From the NCBI GenBank assembly GCA_964016885.1, contig OZ024750.1:11780001-11844000 (forward strand): a stretch of DNA of 64,000 nt. Direction: 5' to 3'. Source of the DNA: Eledone cirrhosa (lineage: Eukaryota). Below the pieces are notes generated by a model that made no database searches, was not told the DNA's origin, and saw nothing but the letters and a program-made list of their open reading frames with translations. The position numbers and the translations under genes were made by a program. This document shows, piece by piece, positions 12,951-59,484 of this stretch (the first letter of the stretch is position 1; each line of letters starts with the position of its first letter).

Positions 12951-12954
<4 letters not shown>

Positions 12955-13048
12955 CAGGATTAAACCAGGATTCAACAGAGTACTCAATACTTGAGATAGT
13001 AGAGTGTTACTATATTAGAAAGAGTCGGGGTTTGACGGCTGAGCTCTT
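12951..13048 (-). mobile_element. Penelope-like terminal remnant, family B (hammerhead 3' end plus GAGTAC tail)
   Basis: Reverse complement matches 31445-31480 and 58910-58974; ends against (TA)n. Confidence 0.6.
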
Positions 13049-13667
13049 TAATGTAATGGTTTGACAAATGTTTAGTGATATATACCATAATTAAGAAATA
13101 GGTATGGATCAGCCAGAGCCTATAGTAGTAGAAGTGCTACACTGTGGGATGGTACCAAAAGGTAGGGGCCAGCCAGGGCCTAGCGTAGTAGAAGTGCCAC
13201 ACTGTAGGATGGTAACAACAGCCAGAACCTATAGCAGAAGTGCCTTGCTGGGATTGTACCAGCTAGAGCCTAGAGTAGTAGAAGTACCTCACTGTGTAAT
13301 CATACCAAAAACTACATGGTTCCAAAGCAAACTAATAATTTTGTTTTTAATCATGAAAACCAGAGAGTAAAAATTAAGAAAAATAAAAAGGAAACCTATT
13401 TGCCATAGGGAACTTATCTGTTGGTTTAATTCTATAACTGACACCCAATCAACACAAAATATTTACTTTAACATTTAAGCTGTGAAGGATGAAGATTAAT
13501 CAAAGCAGACTTTTTCTTTTAATGTCAGTTATTTCTCAATCTTTATGAAGTTAGAAGGATATAATAAATATAAACCAGACTCTAAGGAAACTATGGCAGT
13601 CGGTATCAGATAAAATCAGGTAAAAATATTTATAAATATTAATATAAAGGTACAGGTATGGCTAGAG

Positions 13668-13984
13668 CAGGGGTGTGCAATATATTCCATTAGTGGGCCA
13701 CTTTTAAACATTTGAACAACTATTAGCGCCATTAATATTTATTAAGCACTATTCGAAAGATTCACCACAACTTCTTTCCATAACATGAAACTGGGAAATT
13801 ATAACACACATAACCCTATCAGTGAAGCCCTTTAGTATAGGTCAACTAACAGAAAATTGTATTACGGTTACGAAAATAATTCTAAATAAGTCTACAAGGT
13901 AAAAATTAAAAAGTCATCGTGAGCCACTCTGACTAGTCAAGCGGGCCAGATTGTGACCCACGGGCTGCCTGTTGCACGCCCCTG
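13668..13984. mobile_element. hAT-type MITE
   Basis: TIR caggggtgtgcaa / ttgcacgcccctg; 8-bp TSD ggctagag/ggatagaa (6/8); subterminal gcgggcc motifs. Confidence 0.85.
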
Positions 13985-15203
13985 GGATAGAATATCAGGT
14001 TGACTAATGCCTTATGAGTGAATTTGGTAGACAGAAGCTGTAAAGAAGACTTTTGTGTGTGTACGCCATTAGAACTTACACTAGGTTAACCCGACAGATG
14101 TATAGCAAGCTATGCCATTGAACCTTAAGACTTATTTCATATTTATAGTTTTCACCAGATATTTCATCTCATGGTTAGGGATTAAGGAGAGATTATAGGA
14201 GTCAAATGCTTTTCTCTCTGCTCCCTAGTCTTTTGTTTATTATTGTAGTTGCTGTTATTTTCATTGTTATTATTAATACCTTGTAATTAGAATCTGTTGA
14301 AGTTGACCTCCATATTTTGTCATCCTCATCCTTTGGAGAGAAATATACTTTTGACTTATTCAAACTAAGAAAACTGCAACGTCAGGAGTTTGGTTTTATC
14401 TTGAAATATTTTATATGTAAATATACTTTAGTTGTTGAAGTGACGCCTGAACAAGTATCCTCCAGCACCAACTAAACTTGCCCTCCACCTCTGGGTCCTG
14501 GCCAAAAGGATAGAGAATACATTTCTCTGGTGGATAGTGAGGGAAACGCATTGGAACAGCCATTCTGTAAATTCATTTTAAAACATTAGGGTTTTGGGAG
14601 ATGGGGGGCAGTGTTATAAACATTGAAGATACTAAAATGTAAAAGGTTAGTGTTCAGTGTAAAAGAATTATTCAAACTTAATTTTTCAGGCAAAGTAAGT
14701 TTCCTTTTGAAAGTAATGTAGTACATACTATGAAGAGATAAAAGAAAAAAACACTTTATCTCCTTTCTTTGATATTATGTTTTCATTATATTTTAAATGA
14801 CAGGTTGTTATAGTCAAAGCCTTAACAGATTGAAACCTTTGATTACTACCTCATAAATTTATTTCTTCTTACGGGGTGGGATGGGCGTTAAACTGCTTCT
14901 TATATATATATATGTATGTATATATATATACATGTATATGTTTTATTTTTATCTCCCACAAATTATCAAAAATAATCTTGGTTATAAGTGTTTTTAGTTC
15001 ATTTTGTGCAACACGTAATATTTCATCTCACAATCTTATTCCTCCCCCTTCTCCTCATCTTTCCAACGTACGTTCCTTAGCTTAATTGAGTTGGAGAGAA
15101 TTTGAATTTGAAAATAACCTCGGTTAAAATTTTGTCTAACATCCGGCTGTCGATTGGTGAATCAGTTAAAATGGTGGGCTTGATAATTCTTTGTAGTATT
15201 TTA

Positions 15204-15272
15204 AATAATAATAATGATAATGAAATTATTGTGTACAGTGCTCAGGTGCACTACAACTCAACAAAGGTGCAC
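15204..15272 (-). mobile_element. CR1-type LINE extreme 3' end
   Basis: Reverse complement of the 3' end seen at 28203-28265 and 59786-59855. Confidence 0.8.
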
Positions 15273-15300
15273 ATTACTCTATAAATGATGATGATGATGA

Positions 15301-15489
15301 TACTATTATATTTTCACGGTTTTACCTCATAATTTTCTCACATAATATTGAATCTATGAGAATTTGATATTATTTATTTTGAGATCAATACCTTAACATC
15401 AGTATGAGTAGCTGGTTACGACTGGTTTGAACAGAAAGAGGTGAGAGAATTCTGGCCAGATATGGCCAGTTTAAATGTTAAAGGGTTAA
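15301..15489. mobile_element. piggyBac-type MITE family 1, partial
   Basis: Matches 9670-9865 and ends aagggttaa. Confidence 0.8.
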
Positions 15490-15607
15490 TAATGTTGGGT
15501 TCAAATCTGAGATTAATTTTACTTAATGCAGCAGATTAGTGGAGTTGCTAGACATGTCTAACCCACGGAAGGATGGAAAATAGATGTTAAATGGTGATGT
15601 TGATGAT

Positions 15608-16230
15608 ACACACCACCACAACATACCATACCAGATCACATCACAACATACCATACCACACCACACCATACCACACAACACCATCATACCACACAACACC
15701 ACCACACCACACAACACCACCATACCCACACCACACCACACCATACCATACCATACCATACCACACATCACACCACACCACATACCACACATCACACCAC
15801 ACCACACCACACATCACACCACACCACCATACCACACCACACCATACCATACCATACCACACACACCACATACCACACATCACATCACACCACACCACAC
15901 CACACACCACACCACACCACACCACACACCACACCACACCACACATCACACCACACCACACCACACCACACCACATCACACCACACCACACCACACCACA
16001 CCACACGACACGACACCACACCACACCACACCACACCATACCACACCACACCACACCACACCACTGCACCGTCACACAACCACACACCACACCACACCAC
16101 ACCACACCACACCACACCACACCACACCACACCACACCATACCACACCACACCACACCACACCACACCACACCACACACCCCACCCCACCCCGCTGCACC
16201 GTCACACAACCACACAACCACACAATCACT
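15608..16230. repeat. (CACCA)n pentanucleotide microsatellite
   Basis: Direct inspection; source of the H/T/P and W/C/G/V ORFs. Confidence 0.97.
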
Positions 16231-17824
16231 CACTCATATCAGATAGACTTCTGTGTTAACTTGAAAATTATTGTAACTAGAAATTTATTGGAATTAGTCA
16301 GTTTTTTGTTTACCCATTTTGATTTCCCCAATCTGAATCTGCTGCCCATCATATTGTACTAAATACACTCTTATGTATTGTCCATTGGTCATCATACGTT
16401 TGTCACTGACCCACACACAGACACACAATAGGGTGAATCCATGTTATAAAGTGGTTGGTGGTATGAATAGCATAAAACAAAATATAGATACAACAGACTT
16501 CTTTTAATGTTTCTGTCTTATTAGATTACCTGACAAGGCATTGGTTGGCCTGAGACAATAGCCTAGAACAAGACTCTTGTACAGTGGGGATGGAGATTGA
16601 AACAACTTGGTTGTTAAATAAATTTCTTAACCACTCAGCCATGCTTGCACCACCATTGTCATACATCATTAATCATTTCAAAAATAATGGTTATTGGCTC
16701 CACAAACATCAGAATATATTACTATAGAAAATAGAACTGTGAAATATATTCAGACTCAACCATTGTCTTTAGCATACAAATTAGAAACAAAAATAGATTC
16801 TGGTTTGTTGAACAAGGTTTTAAGGTCTGTGTGAGATACCTTGTCAGAATTACTTAAAAACTTAGATTTAAAACTTTTTTTTTTTCCAGTTTATTAACTC
16901 TTGTACTAACTTAACTATTTGAAATAACTATTTTAAACTTTCCCATTACACAGCTGTTGAAAGCTTTTCCACAAAGGTTACTGTATATAAAATTGTTCTC
17001 TAACCGTAAACCTTTCCTAAGAAGTCTAAGTGAAAGAAGGTATATAAATTCTACAACTAAAAAAAGAATAGAAAACATTTCAACTTTATTATCTAATTTT
17101 CTGTTAGAGAGTATTTTTCATATTTTTAAAAATGATATTTGGTTGTGTAATCTCTGTCAATAAAAAATTCTGGGATTGAACATAAGGAAATGAATTCATT
17201 TAACAACCAGTATGTTTGATAAACTTAGGGCATGATGACAGTGATGAAATATTTTGAGATAAAAGTCATAATATAGTGGTAGACAAGGACTAGATTGAGG
17301 TGACCTAAAAAAATGAAAAGATATAGGAAAAAAGTTGTATAAATGGTGAAAGGAATTTTACCAGGAAATGACTAAGATACAATTATGTGAAATCATCCAA
17401 TGCAAATAGGACAGGAAAAGAGAAAATAAAAATATTTAAGATTTCTTAATGATAAGCAGTTTTTGATAACCTCCTCTGTTCTGCAAATTATTCTGTACAA
17501 ACATCTGTTGTATGGGTCTGCAAATCCTGATATTTGCAATTCTGATATAGGAGATTCACAAATCAATGTTTGTTTTTAAATTTTCCTAATGTTAACCTCT
17601 TAATTGTTTATGAAGTGAACATGGTATTATTTAAACATTAAATTTAATGAATTATGCAAATTTTAATATTTATGTAGATAACACGAAGACAAATATTTCT
17701 TTTTATGGTTGTACGTATAATGCAGGCATGGCTATGTTTCACAACAGGCATGGCTATGTTTTACAACAAGCATGGCTGTTTCACAACAGGCATGGCTATG
17801 TAGTTAACAAGTTTGTTTCACAAC

Positions 17825-17975
17825 AATAATTTTATATAAGTTACTATCAGTTACCTTACATTAAGTTACTATCTTAGTAATGAAATAATTAATAATTTTA
17901 GTAAATCTCTCAAAATTCTTCATTAATTAATTAAAATAGTGTATTTCATTAGAAATGCAGTCATGAATGGGTTAA
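17825..17975. mobile_element. piggyBac-type MITE family 2 fragment; related to 29555-29757, 30088-30205, 62430-62651, 62940-63041
   Basis: Shared ttacattaagttactatcttagtaatgaaata...agaaatgcagtcatga..gggttaa. Confidence 0.75.
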
Positions 17976-18389
17976 ACATCTGTTTCAGAGTCTGTTTTTT
18001 TTTTCATTTTTTTCTTCTGTTTGACTGGAGAGAAACTGTTGGACCCATAGCCTATAATGATTCTCTTTAGCATAGAAGAGAGGAAATTTAAGGAAAAATG
18101 ATTGGGTTAATTTGGTACTTTGGTACAACTAATATTTTCTTTGAATTCCTGTAAAAGAAAAACTTACTGAAGCAGGAAATTCTTGAGTGAAGCATTGGTG
18201 CAGAAGAAAAGACCAAGCATATAATTTAGTACATTAGGCTGTTAGTTTAGCTTTCAGAAGTAAATGTGAAAAGCCAAGTCTTGATTTATATTTTGTTACA
18301 ACATATACCTTCCACATTATGACTAATGATTTACTGGTGGATATTTAATATTTTATTAGCTATTGATAGAACAGACCTAGAAGTCTTGA

Positions 18390-18450
18390 TTCATCATCAT
18401 CACCATTTAACGTCTGTTTTCCCAGCTAGCAAGGGTAGAACAGGTCATCA
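18390..18450 (-). mobile_element. RTE-type 3' tail fragment
   Basis: (cat)n-ttaacgtctgttttcccagctagcaagggtagaac matches the RTE 3' end at 44808-44870. Confidence 0.7.
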
Positions 18451-18477
18451 CAGACCATGTCAGTGCTCTAGTAGAGC

Positions 18478-18880
18478 TACTGACCTCAGATAGGTCAGGG
18501 ATCTCTACCATCTCACATATGTTGCTGACCTCTGACAGGTCAGGGATCTCTACCATCTCACATATGTTGCTGACCTCTGACAGGTCAGGGATCCCTACCA
18601 TCTCACATATGTTGCTGACCTCTGACAGGTCAGAGGTCTCTACCATCTCACATATGTTGCTGACCTCTGACAGACCAGAGGTCTCTACCATCTCACATAT
18701 GTTGCTGACCTCTCATACAGATCAGGGATCTCCATCATCTCACATATGTTGCTGACCTCTCAGACAGACCAGGGATCCCTACCATCTCACATATGTTGCT
18801 GACCTCTCAGACAAGGCAGGGGTCTCTACCATCTCACATATGTTACTGACCTCTCAGACAAGGCAGGGGTCTCCATCAAC
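18478..18880. repeat. 45-bp minisatellite, ~9 copies
   Basis: Unit tgacctctgacaggtcagggatctctaccatctcacatatgttgc with internal tgacct/aggtca dyad. Confidence 0.95.
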
Positions 18881-18968
18881 AAACATATTCTGAGCAGAGT
18901 GTAGAAGGCAGTAACATATGTGAGATGGTGGCCCTTGTTCTGTCTGAGCACACTACGGTCCTCTACAG

Positions 18969-19413
18969 CAGGTGTCAGCCAGCTATGGCCTGGAGACCTC
19001 ATTGAATATATGGCATTACATAGAATAATTTTTCGTTTTTCATGTCAATATTTACCCAGCATAATTTTTGCGATATATTCACTGTTTTAATTTATTGATA
19101 TACCTTACTGTGTGTTGAATTTCTCATCTTGTTATAACTTAATAACAGAAACATACTTATTAACTTAATTAAACAATGTTATAGTATTAAAAAATGTCTG
19201 CACTTTTGGTTATTCTTTATATCAGTGAAAGACATTTTTTTAATTCTGTTAAATACTTATAATGAAAGAAAAACACATTAAAATAATCAAAAACCAAACT
19301 GTTTTCATAGCTTTGTAAGATCATGGGTTCATTTTTTTTCATGTGCCTTGACGAGCAAAACTTTAGAAATATTTTCAATCTGGTCCACCTCCAAAAATAC
19401 TTACCAACGCCTG
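18969..19413. mobile_element. Probable hAT-type MITE, degenerate
   Basis: caggtgtcagcc ... taccaacgcctg ends; flanks ctctacag/ttatatag (5/8). Confidence 0.55.
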
Positions 19414-21960: not shown

Positions 21961-22029
21961 TTGCATGTATACAAACTAGAACTGTCATCTATTTCTGTGC
22001 TAATATCATATTACAATTCTACCATTTGA

Positions 22030-22623: not shown

Positions 22624-23622
22624 CATAGTCAAGTTTTAATGGCTCCAATAATATATTAAAGGCAGCGAAGATGGTTTATAAACAACAGTAAAGAATTGGA
22701 CTGAAATTCATTTTCAGAAACCATTCTATTAGTTATATGTTCACATCAAATCAGTGCTGATTTTTTACCTTTTTTTATCCTTCCATGGCCTGTAGAATAT
22801 TATAAATAACATGCTAGATGTCCATAGTCAAGTTTCAATGGCTCCAATAATATATTAAAGGGCTGTGAAGATTGCTTATAAACAACAGCAGAGACTTGGA
22901 CTGATATGGCTCCAATAATAATATATTAAAGGGCTGTGAAGATTGCTTATAAACAACAGCAGAGACTTGAACTGATATGGCTCCAATAATATATTAAAGG
23001 GCTGTGAAGATTGCTTATAAACAACAGCAGAGACTTGGACTGATATGGCTCCAATAATAATATATTAAAGGGCTGTGAAGATTGCTTATAAACAACAGCA
23101 GAGACTTGAACTGATATGGCTCCAATAATATATTAAAGGGCTGTGAAGATTGCTTATAAACAACAGCAGAGACTTGGACTGATATGGCTCCAATAATATA
23201 TTAAAGGGCTGTGAAGATTGCTTATAAACAACAGCAGAGAATTGGACTGATATGGCTCCAATAACATATTAAAGGGTTGTGAAGATTGCTTATAAACAAC
23301 AGCAGAGAATTGGACTGATATGGCTCCAATAACATATTAAAGGGTTGTGAAGATGGTTTATAAACAACAGCAGAGAATTGGACTGGTATGGCTCCAATAA
23401 TATATTAAAGGGCTGTGAAGATTGCTTATAAACAACAGCAGAGAATTGGACTGATATGGCTCCAATAATAATATATTAAAGGGTTGTGAAGATTGCTTAT
23501 AAACAACAGCAGAGAATTGGGCTGAATTTCATTTCATTCTGTTGAACATTCTCATCCAACCTGTGTTAATTTTTACCTTTTTCATTCTTCCATAGCCTGT
23601 AGAAATTCTATAAATAACATGA
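22624..23622. repeat. 68/71-bp minisatellite (~10 copies) inside a ~200-bp duplicated unit
   Basis: ggctgtgaag recurs at 22861, 22932, 23000 and onward; flanks 22760-22815 and 23565-23622 are homologous. Confidence 0.93.
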
Positions 23623-26130: not shown

Positions 26131-26333
26131 ATATTTAATATAGAAATGGCTTCTATAGGACTAGAACTGTTTCATTGGAAGGAAATCATCTGGAAAGCCC
26201 TGGTGATTTCCTGATGATTTCCTTCGAAGTTCTAGTTCGGTAGAAGCCATTTCGATATTAAATATTTATACTCTATGTATTGAGTACCTTACTTACTGTC
26301 GTTACCCCCGATTGAACCCGGGATACACACACA
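26131..26333. mobile_element. Penelope-like palindromic remnant, family A (inverted hammerhead-bearing arms plus tail)
   Basis: Inverted repeat 26131-26265; arms contain C(T/A)GATGA...GAAA; tail gtattgagtacc...gaacccgggat; flanked by (CA)n. Confidence 0.7.
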
Positions 26334-31360: not shown

Positions 31361-31475
31361 ATAAAGAGTCGGGACCCTGACAGCTGAGCTCTTGCTGGTT
31401 CAACAGCTAGTCCCAGACTCTAGAACTAGCTGTTGAAACGGCAAGAGCTCAGCTGTCGGAGTCCCAACTCTTTAT
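31361..31475. mobile_element. Penelope-like palindromic remnant, family B
   Basis: ~50-bp inverted arms; the + arm has GAAACGGC-loop-GCTGTC (hammerhead stem III plus GUC); lies between (CT)n and (CA)n. Confidence 0.65.
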
Positions 31476-31500
31476 AATATGACACACGCACACACACACA

Positions 31501-31583
31501 TATTGGGTCGTCAAGCATGAAATTTGTAGAAATTTGGGTTTTTTCTACAAATTTCTACAAATTTCATACTTGACGACCCAGTA
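31501..31583. mobile_element. Tiny Tc1/mariner-type MITE, almost entirely TIR
   Basis: TA-ttgggtcgtcaagcatgaaatttgtagaaatttg ... caaatttctacaaatttcatacttgacgacccag-TA. Confidence 0.75.
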
Positions 31584-32461
31584 TATACAAGAGAGAGAGA
31601 GAGAGAGAGAGAGTGTGTATGTGTGTTTGTATGAAATTAGATATGTTAGTGTAATCTAGAACAAAAGGTTTATCTATAATTATATGTTTACCATTATCTT
31701 CATTTGTCTTCTGTATTCTAAGTTGGTTCTTAGCAACAATATTGAGCGAACCAGGCCAGGTAATAAAATAGAGAGGTTGTAAAGTAAAAACAAACACAAC
31801 AAACCAAACTAATTTAGGATTGAATTAACGGTTAAATTCTCAGCCGATTGATTTACAATCAGCTTTTCATTTTCACTTTCCCCATTTCTTGCACCTGGAG
31901 CAGACTAATCCATACATTAACTTCTAATTCTCTGCAATGTTGGTGTTAAGAGAATCATTACCTTTTCTTCAATGTTCTCTCATTTTCAGCTTAAATAAAA
32001 TATGAGCTAATGGAATTTCCATCCAATATTTGATATTTAAGGAAACAAGAAGAAAAAAAGTGTGGTGAGGGTGGGGAAAATAGAAAATAAACTTGCATTA
32101 AATTATTTTTAATTTAAATTATTTTTTTTTTTTACTATTTTATATTTTATATTTATTTTATTTTATTTTACATGTTAGCATGGATTAAATGATGATGATG
32201 GTGGTGATGATGAAAATGGCTTTTGGAGGGAATGAAACAAAAATGATATTTCCATATTGTTGGAAGTGATAGTTTTACGGTTGAATGCCTTTCTTACTGT
32301 TAACTACTTAACTAGGAAGTAGCATGTGACTTGTTGTCAGCTAGACTAACTGAACCAAACAGTTATAGCTCTCCTCCCACCCCTACACACCTCTGGCCCT
32401 CCTTCCTGCCATTTGCAGAATGCAAGGGATGTAGAACTGTTAGAAGATATGATTTGGTCAC

Positions 32462-33168
32462 TAATCCAACAACAACTGTATATACTTGAATATAATCCAA
32501 CAACTGTATATACTTGAATATAATCCAACAACTGTATATACTTGAATATAATCCAACAACTGTATATACTCGATTATAATCCAACAACTGTATATACTCG
32601 ATTATAATCCAACAACTGTATATACTCGATTATAATCCAACAACTGTATATACTCGAATATAATCCAACAACTGTATATACTCGAATATAATCCAACAAC
32701 TGTATATACTCGAATATAATCCAACAACTGTATATACTTGAATATAATCCAACAACAACTGTATATACTTGAATATAATCCAACAACAACTGTATATACT
32801 TGAATATAATCCAACAACAACTGTATATACTTGAATATAATCCAACAACAACTGTATATACTCGAATATAATCCAACAACTGTATATACTTGAATATAAT
32901 CTAACAACAACTGTATATACTTGAATATAATCCAACAACAACTGTATATACTTGAATATAATCCAACAACAACTGTATATACTTGAATATAATCCAACAA
33001 CAACTGTATATACTTGAATATAATCCAACAACAACTGTATATACTTGAATATAATCCAACAACTACTGTATATACTTGAATATAATCCAACAACTACTGT
33101 ATATACTTGAATATAATCCAACAACTGTATATACTTGAATATAATCCAACAACTGTATATACTTGAAT
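32462..33168. repeat. 28/31-bp minisatellite, ~24 copies
   Basis: Unit atccaacaactgtatatacttgaatata with or without an extra aac. Confidence 0.97.
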
Positions 33169-33280
33169 ACAAGTTGATCTCATATTAGTCCACCCCTATT
33201 TTATGCCTGGGAAATGGGCAAAACTCCAAAACTCGTTTGTAAACCAAGGCAGGTAATCAACATTGTTTAAATGGTGCAGT

Positions 33281-33462
33281 CGGATTGGCAGTATCGGTAG
33301 AGGGTCGGACGCCATGCTTTGCAGCATAGAGTTACGTCCCTTTATGATCTGAGTTCAAATCTTGCCGAGGTTAACTTTGCCTTTCATCCTTACGGGGGTC
33401 GATAAAATAAAGTACCAGTAATGCACTGGGATAATTGCTGGCCAAGTGCCAAAAGTAGAAAC
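33281..33462 (+). mobile_element. tRNA-derived SINE
   Basis: Full-length young-family copy. Confidence 0.92.
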
Positions 33463-34121
33463 AATTATGTTTAAATGGTGCAGTTTTGAAATTCTCATGA
33501 GTGGAAGATATATTTATAAAGTTTTAATATTTTTGATATTTAAAACGTTTTAAGTGCTGCTTAGTGTTTAGATTTTGTTTCACAATTCCATTACATAATG
33601 ACTTTTTTTTACCAATTTCCGACCCATTTCGAAGGCCATATTCATTCAAAACATATCAAAAACAATAGGAAAAACAAATTTCACCTCTAAAGTGTAATAT
33701 TCACCTCAAAAGCAAAATATTTTATCACCTCATTTATATAGAATATTGAAGTTGGTAAAAACTGGCAAAATATTTACTTCAAATATAAACTGCTCCTCCA
33801 TTTTATCATCTTTTTTTTTTTGTCACACATTTCTCAGCATATATACATCTATATATGGTAATTATAATGATTATCATACCTTCAAAAACAATTGTTATTG
33901 ATATTGTTATTAAGGTAAAACTATTAAGAGAAATTATAGTGTGTTGGATTAAATGATTTCAAATTCTGTTGAGGTTAACTTTGTTTTCTTCTTTCTGGAC
34001 TCAATAAAATAAAGTACTGGTCAGGTACTAGGTCAATTTAATCAACTTACCTCTCTCTTCAAAATTACTGGTGTTATGCCTAAATTAGAAACCAGTATTA
34101 CTACTATTATTATTATCATCA

Positions 34122-34706: not shown

Positions 34707-34867
34707 TTTGGACCCCAGTCAATGGAGTTTGTTGTTTGATTTTTTTAAATGTTTATTTTTTAGTCTTTGTCAAAAGCTTCTCCTCACACAAAAACCCCAC
34801 ACGGTATCATCCTGTACTGTCCTTATTTGTATAAAGAAACCCAAAGAAATCATTATCAACATCATTA

Positions 34868-35053
34868 GGGTGGTGGATTGGCAGTATTGGTAGATCATCA
34901 GGCACCATTCTTTGAAGCATAGGGTTATGGCCCTTTACGTTCCGAGTTCAAATCCCACCGAGGTTAACTTTGCCTTTCATCCTTACGGGGTCGATAACAT
35001 AAAGTACCAGTAATACACTGGTGTAATTGCTGGCCTTGTGCCTAAAGTAGAAA

Positions 35054-37633: not shown

Positions 37634-37740
37634 AGGGGCTTATATGCCCCCATATATATTTGATTATTTTTCACAGTCAAAAACCAGCATTAAAGCAGTT
37701 TACTGCTTTAATGCTGGTTTTATATAGGGCATACAAGCCC

Positions 37741-37742
<2 letters not shown>
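37634..37742. repeat. Palindrome beside (TA)n
   Basis: Perfect 20-bp stem aaaaccagcattaaagcagt-tt-actgctttaatgctggtttt (37680-37721); outer arms aggggcttatatgccc / gggcatacaagcccct. Confidence 0.85.
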
Positions 37743-37771
<29 letters not shown>

Positions 37772-37781
37772 GGCATACAAG

Positions 37782-37820
<39 letters not shown>

Positions 37821-39905: not shown

Positions 39906-40137
39906 ATTTAGAGGAAATCTGGCTGCTATTTCTATTTCTCACAAGTTGAATGACTGCAGAGAGTCTCTTCCTAAACAGTTTATTTGATAGAGTGGAATAC
40001 TAGCTTTAGTAATGATGTATTAGTAATGTGCTTTAGTAATGATGTATTAGATGACAAGCTACTATTAAAGATTAGTAGGTTTAGATGGAGGCTTGAAACA
40101 ACAGAAAACCAATGAAGTATTTCTATGATATCTTGGG

Positions 40138-40333
40138 ATATTAGACTCATAGACATATTGGTGGTATGATGATTATATATCATTTGAAACCTGTTGTTGT
40201 ACATACTTGTTTAATCCCCGCCATCTTGGATAAGTAGACAGTAACTTACTGCTGCTGTTGTTGCTGTTCTGTACCAGTAGTGAGAATGTGCAACAAGTTA
40301 ATTACGTTACTCTACTAAGTAGGAAAGAATTAG
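40138..40333. repeat. Dispersed ~200-bp repeat, copy 2 (see 12716-12918)
   Basis: Near-identical sequence; also ends at (TA)n. Confidence 0.9.
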
Positions 40334-40337: not shown

Positions 40338-40435
<98 letters not shown>

Positions 40436-40458
40436 CCACAACAGTTAATTCACTATTT

Positions 40459-40500
40459 CCAAGAACAATTTGTTTCACCTCAGACAGATCATCAGCTCGG
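40459..40500 (-). ncRNA. Minimal type I hammerhead ribozyme motif
   Basis: ccgag CUGAUGA ucugucugaggu GAA ACA aau UGU U cuugg: 5-bp stem I, complete core, 3-bp stem III, GUU site, weak stem II. Confidence 0.6.
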
Positions 40501-40540
40501 TTTAAATGTGATAATATGGAAAAGGATATATATAAATGAC

Positions 40541-40585
40541 TTCTACAGGTCTAGAACTGTTTCATTCGTATGAAATCATCAGGAA
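40541..40585 (-). ncRNA. Minimal type I hammerhead ribozyme motif (left arm of palindrome 40538-40639)
   Basis: uuc CUGAUGA u uuc auac gaa u GAA ACAG uucuagac CUGU A gaa: all three stems, complete core, GUA site, U-U at the base of stem II. Confidence 0.7.
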
Positions 40586-41155
40586 TATAATTCCTGATGA
40601 TTTCATACGAATGAAAATTCTAAACCACCTGTAGAAGTCCTTTTTATGTACAATAAAGATGCCTATGCTCTACCAACATATTGAGTCTCTTCTTTAATTG
40701 TGCCCCCCCCCCCCCCTCCCCACCACCACTTGGGAACCTGTGTGTATGTATGTGTGTGTGTGGGGGGGGGGGTCATGTGAGCGTTTGCTGTGACTTTTCT
40801 TATGTCATAGTTTTTATTTTCATGTTTTATTTTTAGGTCCACTTTGGTTTTAAGTAGCAATGTAATTTTAGTGAGGTTATTGTTCAAAATTGAATGGTTA
40901 TTGGGGTTAATGACTGCAGAAGAAAACAGAGAAAAGCACTTGATTAAGGATGGTGTTCTACAGAAAGAAAGAAACATTAGTTAAGATATTTAGATGGGAA
41001 ATATATAATAGTGAGACATGAGGAGTGACTGCTACATCCAGTATAATTTGGTGGAGATAGTAAATACTTTGTTTGAGGAGAAACTCGTAGGAGGTTAGTC
41101 AAATGATGAAACTTAACAAATGTAAAACCTTGGTAAGTTAAAACTTATTCATTAA

Positions 41156-41487: not shown

Positions 41488-43028
41488 AAACTGCTAAGTA
41501 TATTTAGAGCACTATGTAGTACAACAATACCTAAATGTAATTAAGACTCTCTATCTATCTATCTATCCATCTGGATAGATAGATAGATAGGTGTAAGTTC
41601 CGAGTATGAAATGATGATGAGCCAAGTGGAGTAGACAATTTTACTTACTGAGATTAAGTAGGTAAAGTAATTGAGGTAGTTAGAGTAAATGAGAGAATTC
41701 TGAATCTCAGATTACTTACAGACAATAGGATAACGATGATTATTTCTACTTATGTACCACAGTGAGGACTAAGTAATGAACAAAAGGATCAGTACTATGA
41801 TGGCATCTTACAGATAGCTTCAATAATGTGAGAGATTAGTGGAAGAGAGACAGTGATGTCTGGTAAGAGAGAAGGGGTGAGTGATGGGTAACAGTAGAGA
41901 TTGGTGATTGATGTTGATATTGTGTGACCTGGAGGGGAGACGGTGATGTCAAGCACATTTTTGCTGGTAAGATAGAAAGGATGAGTGATAGGATAACAGT
42001 AGAGATTGGTGATGGATGTGATATTGTGTGACCTAGAGAAGAGGGAGTGAGGGCTAGTAGTATAGAAAAGTGATGGGATAGAAATAGATTTGATGCAATC
42101 CCTTTCATCTACTGCAGCTTAAGAGACGTCTCTCCACTCTATGTAGTCTCTCTCTTTCTCTCCATATTTACAGTGTTTGTACTAGAGGACATGTCTTTTG
42201 TAATCCCCGGTCAACATGATCCTACATCAGACCCTTCATCGGGTTCAGTTTTCTTGAGGTAATTCTTCACATTTTAGTCCCATGTCTTTCTTGGTGTCAA
42301 CTTTAACCACAAGTACTATCTCCTACAAGTACCCAGCCCGTTATACAACCCTCACTCTCTTTACACTCCACATGGTGCTAGTGGTGTACACACACACACG
42401 TTATATTATTCTACAAAAGAACAATCAAGTTTAGACACATTCCTAGATTAATTAACTAATAAAGAACTGATTAATTTAAGTTATTAAACTTTGGGTTAGA
42501 AGTATAATTTATTCATGCTCCCTTAACAAAGTAAAGACGGAGACAACATTGTTGATGTGTCACCTGTTTTGTTCATTACCATTCCTTCATTAAAAGTAAT
42601 ATCTCTGTTTTATTCATTACCATTCTTCCAAGGTAATATATCAAAGACTTCCTAACTGATTAGATTAAGGTTTTTACTTAACAAAATGTATTATAAATTC
42701 TATTTAATTTCACTTTATTTAGTATTAATTTATTCTTCATCTGTAACAGCCTTGTTTAATACTACTTTTATCACAATGGAATCAATATTTATTTGAAACA
42801 CTTTCTTGACCATTCAAGACTGCAATATCCCTGTGAAGTTAGAATTTCTCTGAAAGTCTGTTCTTATTCCATAAAGAAGTTGGTCTTCTAATTCTTGACC
42901 GTATAAAGTATCTGAGTACCTTTTTAACTGTGTTCAGCCCCCCCCCCCCATATGAATCGGGAGTCCACCTATTATATATATATATATAGTAAAATAAAAC
43001 AAGGCCAAGTGCTTACGCCTTCATTACG

Positions 43029-43127
43029 TTTATTGGTTGGTGGCGCGCGTTTCGCCACTGATCAGCTCAAGGTTTGATCTGTATCGATCTAGCTCGACTT
43101 CGTAATCCCCGGCTCGTCAGCCCTCTT
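43029..43127 (-). ncRNA. Degenerate hammerhead motif with long stem II insertion and downstream AATAAA
   Basis: CUGACGA GCC...GGC GAAA CGCGCG CC; the site is GCC rather than GUC; lies between (TA)n tracts. Confidence 0.5.
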
Positions 43128-43246
43128 ATAATGGTAATGAAAAAAACAAAATATATATATATATATATTTAAAAGGTATTCAGAAATAACAACACAATCG
43201 GTACAGTATATGGAAGGAACATATTAGGTTAACGCTTGAAATAGCA

Positions 43247-43290
43247 GGAAGAGGGTCTTAACGTTTTGGATGGTCGTCCTTCATCAACAC
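43247..43290 (-). ncRNA. Degenerate hammerhead motif
   Basis: UUGAUGA a GGA cgacca UCC AAAA CGUU A; two core substitutions; palindromic AACGUU stem III. Confidence 0.4.
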
Positions 43291-43489: not shown

Positions 43490-43570
43490 GCAAAGTTTCA
43501 GAAGATCCCGTTAAGGGTGAAAGCAGCGATTCTTTGCTTAAACTTTAATCTGTTATTTTAATTTTTAAAA

Positions 43571-43739: not shown

Positions 43740-43777
<38 letters not shown>

Positions 43778-43839
43778 TAAAATAACAGATTAAAGTTTAA
43801 GCAAAGAATCGATGCTTTCACCCTTAACGGGATCTTCTG
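43490..43839. repeat. 64-bp inverted repeat (1 mismatch) around a TA-rich spacer; arms carry a hammerhead-like motif
   Basis: 43499-43562 versus 43776-43839; motif CAGAAGA t ccc gttaa ggg t GAAA. Confidence 0.85.
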
Positions 43840-44805: not shown

Positions 44806-45475
44806 TCATCATCATCATCATCACCGTTTTACGTCCGTTCTTCCACGCTAGCATGGGTTAGACGGGTTGTCCTGTTGTGGGCAGTGTCTGGTCGGCTGAC
44901 CATGCCTTGCTCATACAGGAACTGATCTGGCTTGATTTCTACAGCTGGATGCCCTTCCTAACACCAACCTCATTTACAGTGAGTGCTGGGTGCTTTTTCG
45001 TGGCGCCTACACGTCCACTTTACAGTGTGGGCTGGGTGCTTTTTTGCCGTGGCACCTCCACGACCACCTTGCGGTGGGGGGGGGGGGGCATGTTGTTTAT
45101 ATGCTTCAGCATGTACCCATGGGAGGTCGGGTACCCTGTATTACTGCGTGACGCCAGAGGTCACGGTCGTGTGTCATTGACTTTGAGAGGTGTAGTTGGG
45201 TAAAGTCGGCTTTTATCACCTCATCCCAAGTCATCTTGGGTCTCCCCACTCCGCGGTTTCCATCAACTTCTAGTGCTCTGCACCTTTTTATGCAGCTGTC
45301 ATCCTTCATACGCATCACATGTCCATACCAGCGTAACCGCCTCTCCTGCACGCAGCATTTGATTCCTCTTATGCTCAGTCTCTCTCTCAATTCATTTATG
45401 CTTTGTCGTTCGCGTATATTGCTGTTACACATCCATCGGAGCATGCAGGCTTCGTTTCTCTCTAATCTACGTAAG
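44806..45475 (-). mobile_element. RTE-clade LINE, 5'-truncated (ORF C-terminus, 3'UTR, (GAT)n tail)
   Basis: ORF 45106-45489: MLRWMC...LRERL.IRGI...QERRLRWYGHVMRM...GRPKMTWDEVI...DRDLWR, a typical RTE C-terminus. Confidence 0.92.
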
Positions 45476-45960
45476 AATACCAATCCCAATTTCTAACTTC
45501 AAAAAGCTATTATCATAGCAGTAATACGCTTGGACAGGATTTGAGAGATACGGGGTTCAATTCTTCATGGGTGCTATCCGGTTATTTTCAGACATATAAC
45601 GTCTACTTTCTTCAGCTATAGAAAACTTACCAAACAAAAGGCTGGGAAGACTACTCAGCTGTTTCCAAGACATAACAACCTCCCTAGTGTTAGTATCATA
45701 ATATGGATTTGGTAGAGTACAGGAATGTATTTAAGTGAGATGAAGTCCAGACCTTCCAGCTCGTCTGAGAACTTGGTAAAGTGTGGCAAGATGCTGGCCT
45801 CCAGCTTATCTGAGAGATCAGTAGCTCTGCTTGAGTAGTGACTCGTTCTGTGACGAACCATCCAACCCTTGTTACCAGGGAAAATGGATGTTAATTGATG
45901 GAAATGATGATGATGTTAAATGAATTATTTCACTTTTTTTAACTGATCAAAATAATAATT

Positions 45961-47486: not shown

Positions 47487-47565
47487 GTGGGTAAGAGGTA
47501 GTAAATACTTGAGACATTTTCAGTAGAGGGGGAAATGTCTCAAGTATTTACTACCATTTACCCAC
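47487..47565. repeat. 33-bp hairpin with a 23-bp perfect core
   Basis: gtgggtaagaggtagtaaatacttgagacattt / aaatgtctcaagtatttactaccatttacccac. Confidence 0.9.
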
Positions 47566-50063: not shown

Positions 50064-50140
<77 letters not shown>

Positions 50141-50181: not shown

Positions 50182-50243
<62 letters not shown>

Positions 50244-53400: not shown

Positions 53401-54007
53401 AATATCACTTGAAGATATTGGTGGGCAGTGTAAACCACAGCTTTAGAAAATCAGAAATAGTCGAAAGCTACTTTATTCAGTGGTTTGTTCTTGTGGTTAT
53501 ATACTTGAAACGGTTTTTCATTGTGCAAGTTAGAAAGCAAAAGAATGCATAAATTGTAATTAATAGAATCTAGCTTTAACATAATGGCTGAAAATGATCT
53601 ACCTTCCTGTCCAGTCTATGGAGATTACCATTTCTATCATCATCATCATCACCACCATCATCACTCTTTTTACATTTGTTTCTCCATAAAAGATATATTT
53701 AGAAAGGCAATTGTGAAATTGGTGTGTCAAATTTTCATATAGTCTTTATTAAATATCAGTTAAATAGTTAACCTTTTTTTATGTTAATGTTAAATATAAT
53801 TAAATTTACCATCTGTTTAGGTTGAAAGCGTCTTTCTCAATGCATAGAATCATTTCCCTGAAAATAGTCTCATTTATTCAAAAGACTGTCTACAGTTCTA
53901 AATGCCACTCTGTTTGGAATCACGGATATTTTATTAACAGTTCTTAACATGTTTATTCACATGAATACATTATAGCACTTTACTGTACTGTGTAGTTAAT
54001 TATGAAA

Positions 54008-54045
54008 CCACCACTACCACTACTACTACTACTGTTACTACTACC

Positions 54046-54120
<75 letters not shown>

Positions 54121-54208
54121 ACCACCACCACCACCACCACCACCACTACTACTGTTACTACTACTATCACTACTACTACTATCACTACCACAACCACCAC
54201 TACTACTA
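54008..54208. repeat. (ACT)n/(ACC)n/(GCT)n compound trinucleotide repeat
   Basis: Direct inspection. Confidence 0.97.
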
Positions 54209-55175
54209 TCTTTGGAGTTATGTTAGAAACACGAACTGTTGCTTTATAAGTTTAAACATCAAATTTTATTCAAATTTTATTATGAAGGGAAAAAAAAACA
54301 AAAAAACTTTACCAATATGGAAAAACCAGCATTAAACCAACAATAATTATTCTAAAAATCAAAGTCTTTTATATTTCTTTGTATTGAATTATTTCTTTTA
54401 TCACCTATAGCAAGAATAATTTTTTGTTAAGAAACTCCTTGTTTCATTGAAAATCTTGGAATATCTTATTCCGAAGAAGAAGAAAAAAAAGTCTCATTTT
54501 AGTCTATGGGGCCTATGGGAAATTAAGTGATGTTATTGCCATGAATGTTGTATAAGAATATTCCATAAAGATCTTATCTTCAATGATACAACTGCATTAA
54601 ACAACAATAAGAAGAAATTCTTCAGTTTCCTACTAGTTTAATGTTGAAACCTTTTTTTCTTCTCTCTCTCCCTTTTTTTGTTGTTATTTTTGACATAACA
54701 CTTAACACATCTTCAGCTGAAAAGTATTTTAAAGTATGTAATTTTTCTCTACCAATAGTAACCTGCTACTAAAATTTTAGGTCAGACTATTGTTAAACTA
54801 TTGCTCCTGATAGATTTCATCTTTCACCTACCAATACATATTGATAATGCAAATAATAGATGTTGCAGTTATCTCATATATTTACTCAATATTCACTTCC
54901 TACTTTTTTTTTATTATTTTTTTTTTTATTATTGTTTGTTGTTTTTTGTGGGTGGAGGGAAGTGCAGCGTGTAGTGTGAATTGAAAAAGAATGTTGGCAC
55001 CAAACATATTTGCTGCTATGTGCAGTATATGTAGCTCTACTTATATAGATATAAATACAAAAGAATGATGTATGTTAGTTGGAAATATGTTGATTGATGG
55101 ATATAAATACAAAACTTAGAAACAGACCTTGAAAAATGCAGGACATTGCAGTGAGGAGGACAGATCTGTGAATAT

Positions 55176-57630
55176 TGGACCTCACTGCAGACCTGATTCT
55201 GTAGGCCTCACAGAAGACATGATACTGTGGACCTCACAGAAGACATGATACTGTGGGCCTCACAGAAGACATGATTCTGTGGACCTCACAGAAGACATGA
55301 TTCTGTGGACCTCACAGAAGACACGATACTGTGGACCTCACAGAAGACATGATTCTGTGGACCTCACAGAAGACATGATTCTGTGGACCTCACAGAAGAC
55401 ATGATATTGTAGGCCTCACAGAAGACATGATTCTGTGGACCTCACAGAAGACATGATACTGTGGGCCTCACAGAAGATATGATACTGTGGACCTCACAGA
55501 AGACACGATTCTGTGGACCTCACAGAAGACACGATTCTGTGGACCTCACAGAAGACACGATTCTGTGGACCTCACAGAAGACACGATTCTGTGGACCTCA
55601 CAGAAGACACGATTCTGTGGACCTCACAGAAGACATGATTCTGTGGACCTCACAGAAGACACGATTCTGTGGACCTCACAGAAGACATGATATTGTAGGC
55701 CTCACAGAAGACATGATACTATGGCTCACAGAAGACATGATATTGTAGGCCTCACAGAAGACATGATTCTGTGGACCTCACAGAAGACACGATTCTGTGG
55801 ACCTCACAGAAGACATGATATTGTAGGCCTCACAGAAGACATGATTCTGTGGACCTCACAGAAGACACGATTCTGTGGACCTCACAGAAGACACGATTCT
55901 GTGGACCTCACAGAAGACACGATTCTGTGGACCTCACAGAAGACATGATATTGTAGGCCTCACAGAAGACATGATTCTGTGGACCTCACAGAAGACATGA
56001 TACTGTGGGCCTCACAGAAGATATGATACTGTGGACCTCACAGAAGACACGATTCTGTGGACCTCACAGAAGACACGATTCTGTGGACCTCACAGAAGAC
56101 ACGATTCTGTGGACCTCACAGAAGACACGATTCTGTGGACCTCACAGAAGACATGATTCTGTGGACCTCACAGAAGACACGATTCTGTGGACCTCACAGA
56201 AGACACGATTCTGTGGACCTCACAGAAGACACGATTCTGTGGACCTCACAGAAGACACGATTCTGTGGACCTCACAGAAGACATGATTCTGTGGACCTCA
56301 CAGAAGACACGATTCTGTGGACCTCACAGAAGACATGATATTGTAGGCCTCACAGAAGACATGATACTATGGCTCACAGAAGACATGATATTGTAGGCCT
56401 CACAGAAGACATGATTCTGTGGACCTCACAGAAGACACGATTCTGTGGACCTCACAGAAGACATGATATTGTAGGCCTCACAGAAGACATGATTCTGTGG
56501 ACCTCACAGAAAACACGATTCTGTGGACCTCACAGAAGACACGATTCTGTGGACCTCACAGAAGACACGATTCTGTGGACCTCACAGAAGACACGATTCT
56601 GTGGACCTCACAGAAGACACGATTCTGTGGACCTCACAGAAGACACGATTCTGTGGACCTCACAGAAGACATGATACTGTGGACCTCACAGAAGACATGA
56701 TACTGTGGACCTCACAGAAGACACGATTCTGTGGACCTCACAGAAGACACGATACTGTGGGCCTCACAGAAGACATGATTCTGTGGACCTCACAGAAGAC
56801 ACGATTCTGTGGACCTCACAGAAGACACGATTCTGTGGACCTCACAGAAGACACGATTCTGTGGACCTCACAGAAGACACGATTCTGTGGACCTCACAGA
56901 AGACACGATTCTGTGGACCTCACAGAAGACACGATTCTGTGGACCTCACAGAAGACACGATTCTGTGGACCTCACAGAAGACACGATTCTGTGGACCTCA
57001 CAGAAGACACGATTCTGTGGACCTCACAGAAGACACGATTCTGTGGACCTCACAGAAGACACGATTCTGTGGACCTCACAGAAGACACGATTCTGTGGAC
57101 CTCACAGAAGACATGATACTGTGGACCTCACAGAAGACACGATTCTGTGGACCTCACAGAAGACACGATTCTGTGGACCTCACAGAAGACACGATTCTGT
57201 GGACCTCACAGAAGACACGATTCTGTGGACCTCACAGAAGACATGATACTGTGGACCTCACAGAAGACATGATACTGTGGACCTCACAGAAGACACGATT
57301 CTGTGGACCTCACAGAAGACACGATTCTGTGGACCTCACAGAAGACATGATTCTGTGGACCTCGCAAAGGACATGATACTGTGGACCTCGCAAAGGACAT
57401 GATACTGTGGACCTCGCAGAGGACATGATACTGTGGGCCTCGCAGAGGACATGATACTGTGGGCCTCGCAGAGGACATGATACTGTGGGCCTCGCAGAGG
57501 ACATGATACTGTGGGCCTCGCAGAGGACATGATACTGTGGGCCTCGCAGAGGACATGATACTGTGGGCCTCGCAGAGGACATGATACTGTGGGCCTCGCA
57601 GAGGACATGATACTGTGGGCCTCACAGAAG
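55176..57630. repeat. 26-bp satellite, ~94 copies
   Basis: Unit ctcacagaagacacgattctgtggac; 3' block variant ctcgcagaggacatgatactgtgggc. Confidence 0.98.
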
Positions 57631-57914
57631 AGTTGATACTATGCTGAAATCTCATTTAGGTTGTACCACTGTTGAAACAAAAGTGTGGATGCTTGCATGG
57701 GTCAGACAGGCTGTCATGTTTTGAGGGGAGGGGTTGGACTGGTCAGGTGATCATATCTTGCTCATGCTTTCCATTTCTGGTTCGGTTTCCATGGCTGAAT
57801 ACCTCCCTCCCCCCATTCCCAATCACAATGATAGAGATACATACCAGGTTTTCTTAAATGTCTAATTTGATTAAGATTATGGATTCATCTTATCAAATAG
57901 ATGGAATTCTTTAT

Positions 57915-58084
57915 AAATAGACATCACTGAGATATGCATATATATATATATATATATACATACATATATATATAGAATTACATATATATTTACATACATA
58001 TAGACATAACTGTTAGTAGTATATCTGAGGTTTATATACATACACATACATATAGACATAACTGACAGCAATTTATGTGAGGTT

Positions 58085-58126
<42 letters not shown>

Positions 58127-58253
58127 AACATCTAGACATAACTAACAGTAGTATATCTGAGGTTTATATACATATATATATATATACACACACATACATA
58201 TATATACATACATACAGGCATAACTGACAACAGTATATATGAGGTTTTTATAC

Positions 58254-58322
<69 letters not shown>

Positions 58323-58352
58323 CAACTGACAGCAGTATATGTGAGCTTTATA
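57915..58352. repeat. ~35-bp unit (agacataactgacagcagtatatctgaggttt) repeated ~6 times with microsatellite spacers
   Basis: Direct inspection. Confidence 0.85.
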
Positions 58353-58548
58353 TACATGTGTTTCAAAGTTGATGTAAATTTAATGTCCTACATGTTTATC
58401 TGCACTGTAACATCCTATCACATCTGACATTATTAATATCTGTTATCTTTAGTAATATTTTCTGACTTTATTTAGCAACTTTATCTCTATTTTAACAGGA
58501 GTTAGTTGATGTTGTAATCCTTATTTGATGTGATTTTTATCTTTCCAG

Positions 58549-58614
58549 ATGACAGAAGGCCGCAAAACACAGGTTATTTTGTTGGATGAAAATAGGCTTG
58601 ACATCACTATACAG
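58549..58614 (+). CDS. FRMD4: FERM domain-containing protein 4 (FRMD4A/B-like), first FERM exon MTEGRKTQVILLDENRLDITIQ
   Basis: tttttatctttccag|ATG...CAG|gtaaat, 66 nt, phase 0/0. The peptide closely resembles vertebrate FRMD4A MTEGRRCQVHLLDDRKLELLVQ (recalled sequence). The rest of the gene lies beyond the window. Confidence 0.9.
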
Positions 58615-58688
58615 GTAAATATATCGAAACAATTGTTAATTAATTAATTAATTAATTTCCATTGAGCCAGTCAATATTATTAATAATT

Positions 58689-58875
58689 GTTTCTACTTTC
58701 GGCACGAGGCCAGCAATTATCTCTGTGTGTTACTGGTGCTTTATTTTATCGACCCCGTAAGGATGAAAGGCAAAGTTCACCTCGGCGGGATTTGAACTCG
58801 GACCATAAAGGGCCGTAACTCTTTGCTGCAAAGCATGGCGTCCGACCTTCTACCGATACTGCCAACTCACCGCCG
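58689..58875 (-). mobile_element. tRNA-derived SINE
   Basis: Full-length young-family copy. Confidence 0.92.
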
Positions 58876-58975
58876 TATTAATAATAATAACAATAATACA
58901 CACACACATGGGATCCCAACTCTTTATAATATAACCATACTCTACTACCCCAAGTATCGAGTACTCTGCTGAATA

Positions 58976-59012
58976 ATGGTATTACCAATTTCAAACTGAT
59001 TCCATCCTGATT

Positions 59013-59068
<56 letters not shown>

Positions 59069-59484
59069 TAAGAATATTTTCGAAGCAGTGATCGAGTTTG
59101 AAATTATAAATGTAAGCTATCGCCGTATTTTGACTAAAGAAATAAATTAAAGAAATTATTTAGCCTGATAGTGGGGTTAAGAACCCTCGGAGAAATGGAA
59201 AAAGATGAGTATTGACGTACATGGGAGTCATGTGTTGGTGTAATGGCAGCACAGTGGTCTGGATAACCGCAGATGTGGGTTCGACTCCCATGTACGTCAA
59301 TACTCATCTTTTTCCATTTCTCCGAGGGTTCTTAACCCCACTATCAGGCTAAATAATTTCTTTAATTTCTTTAGTCAAAATACGATGATAGCTTATATTT
59401 ATAATTTATATATATATATATCAAGTACCTATATATATATATATATAAATCAGGATGGAATCGGTTTGAAATTGGTAATACCAT
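58976..59484. repeat. Nested inverted repeat: outer 38-bp arms, (TA)n, inner ~125-bp arms
   Basis: 58976-59013 versus 59447-59484; 59101-59229 versus 59283-59407. Confidence 0.92.
59229..59299 (+). tRNA. tRNA-like cloverleaf (anticodon GGA, short variable loop); probable pseudo-tRNA or SINE head
   Basis: A box TGGTGTAATGG; D stem GTGT/GCAC; anticodon stem GTGGT/ACCGC with loop CTGGATA; T arm GTGGG-TTCGACT-CCCAT; acceptor 6/7 paired with three G-U; T5 at 59309-59313. Confidence 0.65.

Follow-up and report, generated by a model that had tools for sequence, protein, structure and literature searches.

Microsatellite-embedded hammerhead units in Eledone cirrhosa are probably terminal repeats of Hydra-clade Penelope-like elements

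A stretch of 64,000 nucleotides from Eledone cirrhosa (GenBank assembly GCA_964016885.1, contig OZ024750.1, positions 11,780,001 to 11,844,000 of the forward strand; this whole stretch is called the window and is numbered from 1) contains short palindromic pieces that sit in or against dinucleotide microsatellites, and these raise the question of what the pieces are and how they came to be written there. An earlier note on this DNA had described at least six short inverted repeats, most of them with parts of hammerhead ribozymes (HHRs), and had proposed that they represent an abundant class without open reading frames (ORFs) that is mobilised by Penelope-like elements (PLEs). Our analysis indicates that the units are probably terminal repeats of Hydra-clade PLEs, ORF-less, 60-140 bp long, highly repeated and placed in microsatellites. 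The GC content of the window is 34.6%, and self-comparison assigned about 30% of it to tandem or simple repeat, in addition to several families resembling short interspersed nuclear elements (SINEs).

All six inverted repeats are present where the earlier note had placed them, with arms at 26131-26196/26207-26265, 31361-31411/31425-31475, 37634-37658/37721-37742 (inner hairpin 37680-37721), 40527-40586/40590-40650, 43499-43562/43776-43839 and 58973-59020/59440-59487 (inner fold-back 59101-59229/59283-59407). The microsatellite lies outside the arms in the head-to-head pairs (26131, 31361, 40538 and the inner 59067) and inside them in the tail-to-tail pairs (43499 and 58976). The units are as follows, and are cited below by a position at or within them.

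12951..13048, minus strand: solo copy of family A (by alignment), starting in loop III, core absent; in order, cleavage site, 3' strand of stem I, full tail, bulged hairpin 12981-13006, end at (TA)n.
26131..26196, minus strand: left arm of family B without a tail; its HHR has A in place of U4 and one mismatch in stem III; of a bulged 6-bp stem I, the 5' strand remains.
26207..26324, plus strand: family B right arm with tail; perfect CUGAUGA, GAAA deleted; one-sided tail 26266-26324, hairpin 26269-26286, end at (CA)n.
31361..31475, no single strand: two family A arms placed head to head, neither with a tail; stem II is lost and the core is joined straight to GAAA, with stem III and the GUC site preserved; central leader recurs in a family B contig.
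40433..40526, minus strand: solo unit with a complete type I HHR at 40459-40500 (core to cleavage site 40464-40495); its short 3' end meets (TA)n, and its depth is about 700 times that of unique DNA.
40527..40586, minus strand: family B left arm, tailless; complete type I HHR at 40544-40582; depth about 10^5 times that of unique DNA.
40590..40698, plus strand: family B right arm with one-sided tail; core and GAAA intact, stem III decayed; tail hairpin 40666-40687, its pairs restored in other copies.
42991..43149, minus strand: candidate decayed HHR unit (43029), read from the sequence, with a (TA)n tract on either side; GAAA and a perfect CUGACGA, long stem II region, CGCGCG loop, C at 16.1, poor stem I.
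43168..43290, minus strand: candidate decayed minimal HHR (43247), read in the same way; core changed at two positions, loop ACGU, 3' sequence of about 90 nt reaching (TA)n.
43492..43562, plus strand: HHR unit (43499), left member of a tail-to-tail pair round a TA-rich tract; stems I and III of 7 and 5 bp, U·U above stem II, A in place of U4.
43776..43839, minus strand: inverted copy of the 43499 unit that matches it at 63 of 64 nt and is truncated at core position C3.
58910..59012, plus strand: family A copy starting just past the cleavage site; hairpin 58938-58963.
59448..59487, minus strand: inverted copy of the last 40 nt of the 58910 tail, tail-to-tail with it across a (TA)n tract.
37634..37742, no single strand: nested hairpins beside (TA)n/(CT)n, HHR core absent, outside the system.

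Comparison with the 12951 tail indicates that 58976-59012 probably belongs to the 58910 tail, as its far end, and is not a separate element. Self-comparison joined 26131 with 40538 as family B (86% over 58 nt, E 4e-12) and 12951 with 58910 as family A (83% over 53 nt), to which alignment added 31361, so that the several sequence families seen by the earlier note were recovered. Alignment also gave families A and B a common plan, in which a bulged stem I, the core, a U·U, a short stem II and GAAA are followed by a stem III of 4-5 bp, whose loop is in part self-complementary, and by the cleavage site, and which ends 3' in one of two ways, by a tailless stop about 16-23 nt past the cleavage site or by an optional tail of about 50-70 nt with a bulged hairpin. 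The tail is present on the right arm only in both 26131 and 40538, a one-sidedness missed by the earlier note. At the other end, window copies begin variously inside loop III, after the cleavage site, at C3, and 30 and 70 nt upstream. No target-site duplication was visible at the element flanks in the window sequence. Stem II is missing in both arms of 31361, and a broken ribozyme was therefore still copied there. As to microsatellites, 14 of the 16 element ends examined lie at most 10 nt from a dinucleotide microsatellite ((TA)n in most cases, otherwise (CA)n or (CT)n) versus 5% of background positions, which agrees with the earlier placement in or against such tracts, although the test is biased because the elements were chosen for that feature.

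Other pieces adjoin these units. A fold-back with 37-nt arms at 31500-31584, between (CA)n and (GA)n, lies 25 nt from the 31361 element, and no full HHR motif was seen in it; at 37634-37785 the neighbouring (TA)n contains a small palindrome that repeats a short stretch of the arm. A second repeat of about 290 bp (12661-12950 and 40051-40333) ends directly at (TA)n in both copies, and these (TA)n tracts carry an HHR-family end on their opposite side.

With regard to the ribozyme itself, a scan of the window with a type I descriptor found two perfect-core motifs (40464-40495 and 40544-40582, both on the minus strand) versus a mean of 0.58 in 12 shuffles, one of which reached at least two. Allowing one core mismatch gave three matches versus 1, 2, 3, 5 and 2 in five shuffles; these include 43499-43539, where the mismatch is common to both arms of the palindrome. 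Decayed motifs were read in the 26131 arms, the 40538 right arm, 43029 and 43247, while 12951 and 58910 contain only sequence 3' of the core, and 37634 and the inner 59067-59407 have CUGANGA on neither strand. The earlier view that most elements carry hammerhead parts thus holds for four palindromes, which are HHR units, and fails for 37634 and 58976, which have no core; its count of about ten motifs resolves into two with a perfect core, one with a single mismatch and others that are decayed, with totals at the level of shuffles. Because the motif counts fall within the shuffle range, the window alone is no proof of hammerheads. Patterns written after the data had been seen gave 4 matches versus 0.37 (two of them being arms of one palindrome and one unrelated) and, for the tail hairpin, 2 versus 0.01; the null for the tail-motif scan is circular, the pattern having been derived from its own four matches. 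Two candidate features were rejected: a 6-nt palindrome in loop III of family B, since 97% of depth has a different base at 40550 and a central CUAG remains, and an HHR at 59158-59190 (CTGATAG..GAAA), which has two core changes and points away from the element end.

Copies elsewhere carry more of the argument. Four sequencing runs (X1, X21, X5 and X6) were mapped at an identity of at least 80% to 716 bp of the window (40435-41150), which cover two of about six families, namely family B and the 40464 unit. X1 contributed 7,302 contigs, and X21, a biased restriction-site-associated DNA (RAD) library, 5,679 of 12.5 million reads (share 4.6e-4). X1 depth, a summed word depth that the mapping tool warns is not equal to copy number, was 1.16e6 at 40555-40578 in the family B arm, 3.8-4.7e3 at 40459-40506 in the 40464 unit and 4.0e3 on the tail, and 5.8 on unique DNA at 40843-41150, giving ratios to unique DNA of 0.8-2e5 for the family B arm and 400-800 for the 40464 unit. 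The X21 read share implies about tenfold fewer copies if a genome of a few Gb is assumed, and because the two measures differ to this extent, the depth-based estimate suggests 10^4-10^5 copies of family B; its two loci in 64 kb agree with the X1-based order of abundance. Family B is also contained in a second organism (X5, depth 6.7e4, without a unique-DNA baseline) and as traces in X6 (depth 25), and its patterns had zero matches in the viral or metagenome contigs scanned. The arms mapped here are therefore not single-copy, as the earlier note had expected, family B standing at about 10^5 times and the 40464 unit at about 700 times the unique depth.

Variation among these copies is consistent with ribozymes: the 11 variants inside the two HHRs among those listed (40 of 67) fall in loop II (8), stem II (1), loop III (1) and stem I (1), and none in the core. 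The stem II variant (91%) changes G·U to G-C and repairs the pairing, and stem I appears at loose ends in three compensated forms (GGC-U-UUC/GAAGCC, GAC-A-UUC/GAAGUC and AGAUUC/GAAUCU), so that the conserved core and covarying stems on which the earlier note had staked its proposal were found. In the tail, hairpin pairing is regained by variants at 40667 (95%) and 40678 (72%), and those at 40687-88 (92%, 82%) agree with other window tails.

The junctions bear on what is inserted. Among the X21 5' junctions listed, 1,892 of 2,173 reads (about 87%) continue into unrelated DNA and represent solo arms, 194 (about 9%) fold back, at six different junction pairs, and 87 (about 4%) show a 77-nt head-to-tail joint with 16 starts. 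The palindrome, which the earlier note had treated as the unit, is a minority form of insertion because about 87% of these junctions are solo arms, and its fold-back point varies between loci. If the palindromes were instead miniature inverted-repeat transposable elements (MITEs) of DNA transposons that resemble hammerheads by chance, the chance-level motif counts, the lack of an Rfam match and the element at 37634, with ends like terminal inverted repeats (TIRs) and no core, would be expected; the preponderance of solo junctions, the variable fold-back points, the one-sided tails, the lack of visible target duplication and variation that avoids the core all speak against this. We regard the MITE reading as very improbable, and for family B and the 40464 unit it is largely refuted; the mostly solo arms and variable centres likewise bear out the earlier note in not taking the arms for TIRs with fixed duplications.

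That the units derive from PLEs is suggested by the manner of insertion. PLEs are marked by inverted copies truncated at the 5' end, by tails on one side only and by a bias to microsatellites, and this pattern is seen at 26131, 40538 and 59067 in the window and in the six fold-back junction pairs and one tandem joint elsewhere. The structure further narrows the earlier proposal of PLE mobilisation to the Hydra clade. Among 25 Hydra families, 14 have CUGANGAU..UGAAA (U·U above stem II) and 4 have stem III ACAG/CUGU, which is also that of family B, and a (TA)n target preference is listed for nearly all (PMC8557442). Window units and Hydra-clade PLEs agree in a type I HHR about 100 nt from the 3' end, the U·U, a one-sided tail with a hairpin, (TA)n targets and the inverted 5'-truncated copy (PMC8557442); they differ in that the window units have no ORF, measure 60-140 bp and have a loop III of 7-9 nt.

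The tail hairpin was compared by eye, without an alignment tool. In three of six Hydra consensus sequences (Hydra-2_Amil, Hydra-2_Ajap and, more loosely, Hydra-1_Crog) the cleavage site is followed after 38-47 nt by a bulged hairpin of the form RCUC-[stem-loop]-UN-GAGY-AC, which in the window comes 26-32 nt past the site; its paired positions differ compensatorily between these consensus sequences and the window copies. Hydra-1_Ajap has the hairpin twice at its very start, upstream of the ORF, an observation made after the pattern had been written. Hydra-1_Amil and Hydra-1_Obim, with consensus sequences that extend only 30-50 nt beyond the site, showed no evident hairpin of this kind. An origin of the units in another PLE clade (Neptune or Nematis), or in several, would be in keeping with 43029 and 43247, which have G-C above stem II and minimal palindromic loops like general metazoan minimal HHRs, with the targeting of microsatellites by Neptune as well, and with a loop III longer than in the Hydra table; as the U·U, the ACAG/CUGU stem and the tail hairpin of families A and B agree with Hydra consensus sequences, we consider such an origin unlikely.

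A number of observations weigh against assigning the units to Hydra-clade PLEs, or to hammerheads at all. Rfam hammerhead families were absent from the best 150 of 211 matches on the window and from all 10 matches on 40430-40600. Motif counts are those of shuffles, as is a test for a half-core with a palindromic loop (7 versus a mean of 6.3). The hammerhead is not the minimum-energy fold in three isolated window copies (hammerhead versus minimum +0.1/-6.1, +1.1/-6.2 and -7.3/-8.8 kcal/mol), and only 26131 and the tandem reads show both stem I strands pairing in the same molecule. Loop III, at 7-9 nt in three families, exceeds the 1-3 nt of the Hydra table (PMC8557442), and the U·U may not be particular to Hydra among PLEs. 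Depth is not copy number, and both the variants (40 of 67) and the reads (at least 80% identity) are selections. Finally, no window copy was traced to an autonomous element: the end motifs of Hydra-1_Obim and Naiad_Obim are absent from the window, and no remnant of a reverse transcriptase (RT) or GIY-YIG endonuclease was found, with 0 of 150 frames (the longest of 223 unmasked frames of at least 45 aa) matching Pfam, a weak test because it also missed a visible fragment of a long interspersed nuclear element (LINE). No unit has an ORF with the autonomous Hydra-clade signature (RT with RWK and DKT, C-terminal GIY-YIG lacking CCHH), and the window units are not autonomous members of that clade. 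The link to PLEs is structural only, because no RT or GIY-YIG ORF was found, and to that extent the earlier proposal of PLE mobilisation stands on fit.

If the units are Hydra-clade terminal repeats, a Hydra-clade RT-endonuclease would write these ends into microsatellites by target-primed reverse transcription. A guide is Poseidon_Ac, whose protein nicks both strands of AT-rich DNA, starts RT from two internal sites that delimit the tail, and needs no HHR cleavage (PMC11167929). The two systems would share these paired starts, a stem-loop at the start, AT-rich nicking and extension of both strands; Poseidon_Ac belongs to another clade, and its binding region is coding where the hairpin here is non-coding (PMC11167929). 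By analogy with Poseidon in vitro (PMC11167929), the protein would bind the RNA at the tail hairpin, which would be a candidate signal recognised by the element's enzyme, nick both strands of an AT-rich target and start RT at either side of the tail. One primed strand would yield a solo arm, two a head-to-head palindrome with the tail on one side, and two with nicks apart a tail-to-tail pair. Since the tail opens the next unit, the 5' end of the transcript would likewise have an HHR and a hairpin, and RT starting at that 5' hairpin copy would run off just past stem I and give mini copies of fixed length.

The extent of the copies is where explanations within PLE biology diverge. In X1, loose 5' ends lose consensus 3-7 nt past stem I (agreement 0.41 over 298 contigs and 0.42 over 186, by a crude measure, close to the level expected of AT-rich flanks), and loose 3' ends concentrate at 40526-40534, the tailless end. 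That most solo copies reach only just beyond stem I suggests run-off at a short RNA end. Given PLE origin, most copies may stop there because the RNA begins there, an idea that we rate below even odds and that is the least certain part of our account. Random 5' truncation of full-length PLE complementary DNAs, as proposed for solo minimal HHRs, would explain the varied starting points of the window copies and has a precedent in thousands of solo motifs, with opposite-strand pairs 100-700 bp apart, interpreted as probable truncated PLEs (PMC4209133); we find it rather doubtful, since the loss of consensus right past stem I in two subfamilies is too sharp, as far as so crude a figure can tell.

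Alternatively, the units could be a self-propagating non-autonomous class, a retrozyme- or SINE-like mini element made up of an HHR with a tail hairpin, derived from short masters or 77-nt tandem units and not by-products of full-length PLEs. The sharp 5' ends, the depth pointing to 10^4-10^5 copies, the 77-nt joint, the 31361 template already lacking stem II when copied and the reported retrozymes, whose units span 51-972 bp and include monomers in any proportion (10.64898/2026.07.22.740005), make this a possibility to be taken seriously. It is held back by upstream extension in some subfamilies (a leader of at least 17 nt common to X21 and X5, and about 70 nt more in 43499), by the absence of the hairpin from tailless copies, by the lack of any tandem array of two or more head-to-tail HHR units in the window and by the lack of a master locus or RNA in the data examined, and we judge it to fall short of probable, on a par with run-off. 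The 77-nt head-to-tail unit (X21, 40541-40586) occurs in several sequence variants, its leader is also present in X5, and it is a candidate very small retrozyme. On the preferred account of PLE terminal repeats, tailed mini copies may again act as templates, and it is here that the by-product and non-autonomous-class readings converge. Most genomic copies are probably dead, with selection on the ribozyme having acted in the source elements.

Much of this setting is already in print, including solo and opposite-strand PLE hammerheads, non-autonomous PLE derivatives (PMC8557442, PMC7229834) and HHR families of 10^5 copies. Solo minimal HHRs of metazoan PLEs likewise number thousands of dispersed copies with opposite-strand pairs, family structure and a self-complementary loop III; families A, B and 43499 differ from them in a stem III of 4-5 bp and a U·U replacing G10.1-C11.1, and family B, by depth, looks at least ten times as abundant as their largest count (about 9,000; PMC4209133). 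The earlier note was right about abundance in proposing an ORF-less class; self-propagation was not supported, and truncated PLE HHRs had been described (PMC4209133). Non-LTR retrozymes, ORF-less type I HHR units akin to the pseudo-long terminal repeats of PLEs, in which monomers are common, reach up to 120,000 copies in axolotl (PMC7229834, 10.64898/2026.07.22.740005), but are defined by tandem arrays and circular RNAs, whereas tandems here make up about 4% of the listed junction reads and are known from DNA alone. Chlamys non-autonomous elements such as MRC1 are also ORF-less PLE derivatives with the 3' end of autonomous families; they are algal, without canonical HHRs, and not described as ribozyme-sized (PMC8557442). 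Among cephalopods, giant squid has 235 Rfam hammerheads (PMC6962438), and for the Octopus family Hydra-1_Obim four copies are noted ending at one site (PMC8557442), far below the abundance of the window families. In literature searches assessed largely by their hit lists, we found no description of these families, of the Hydra tail hairpin, of the sharp 5' end or of the cephalopod case, nor a published PLE-mobilised SINE; repeat databases (Repbase, Dfam) and the Zenodo library of PMC13282606 may have the families.

A further unit in the window, missed in part by the earlier note, which overlooked the tRNA at 59229-59299, bears on the same machinery.

59067..59407, no single strand: nested tRNA-headed unit, HHR absent; tRNA-like head 59229-59299 (plus strand) and body of about 110 nt to (TA)n; inverted 5'-truncated copy 59101-59229 with one-sided 34-nt extension 59067-59100, inside (TA)n.

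The head was recognised by RF00005 (40 bits versus a gathering score of 29) and by ARAGORN, and has a GGA anticodon loop and no long variable arm; by self-comparison the unit is single in the window. It shows the same PLE-type insertion signature without an HHR, and is a possible PLE-mobilised SINE or tRNA retrocopy. In the most far-reaching version of our account, about 10^5 ribozyme-sized elements, each a hammerhead with a hairpin recruiting the Hydra-clade RT-endonuclease, would spread themselves in the manner of SINEs by the machinery that also moves a tRNA-headed SINE, which we consider a doubtful extension.

Other repeats of the window include a fold-back with 33-nt arms at 47487-47565 that adjoins a 23-28-nt tandem repeat and has no HHR match, and long minisatellites at 55176-57631, 32470-33169 and 22838-23525 (periods 26, 31 and 68). 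Self-comparison linked 18 intervals (5601-5713/6733-6924, 12450-12642, 33282-33468, 34866-35053, 58675-58877 and others) into a SINE-like family of about 190 bp, which resembles an octopus SINE. A 128-codon frame at 45106-45492 (minus strand), without a Pfam match, we take to resemble the C-terminal end of a LINE ORF, RTE-like.

If our account is true, these units are among the largest hammerhead families of any animal, and have been missed both by Rfam and by repeat statistics that omit pieces below 100 bp (as in PMC13282606). The tail hairpin common to coral, sea cucumber and copepod Hydra elements is a candidate for the feature by which the PLE protein chooses its RNA and start site, which makes the open question of RNA selection by PLEs testable. 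The run-off origin, if true, would account for the masses of solo minimal hammerheads in animal genomes.

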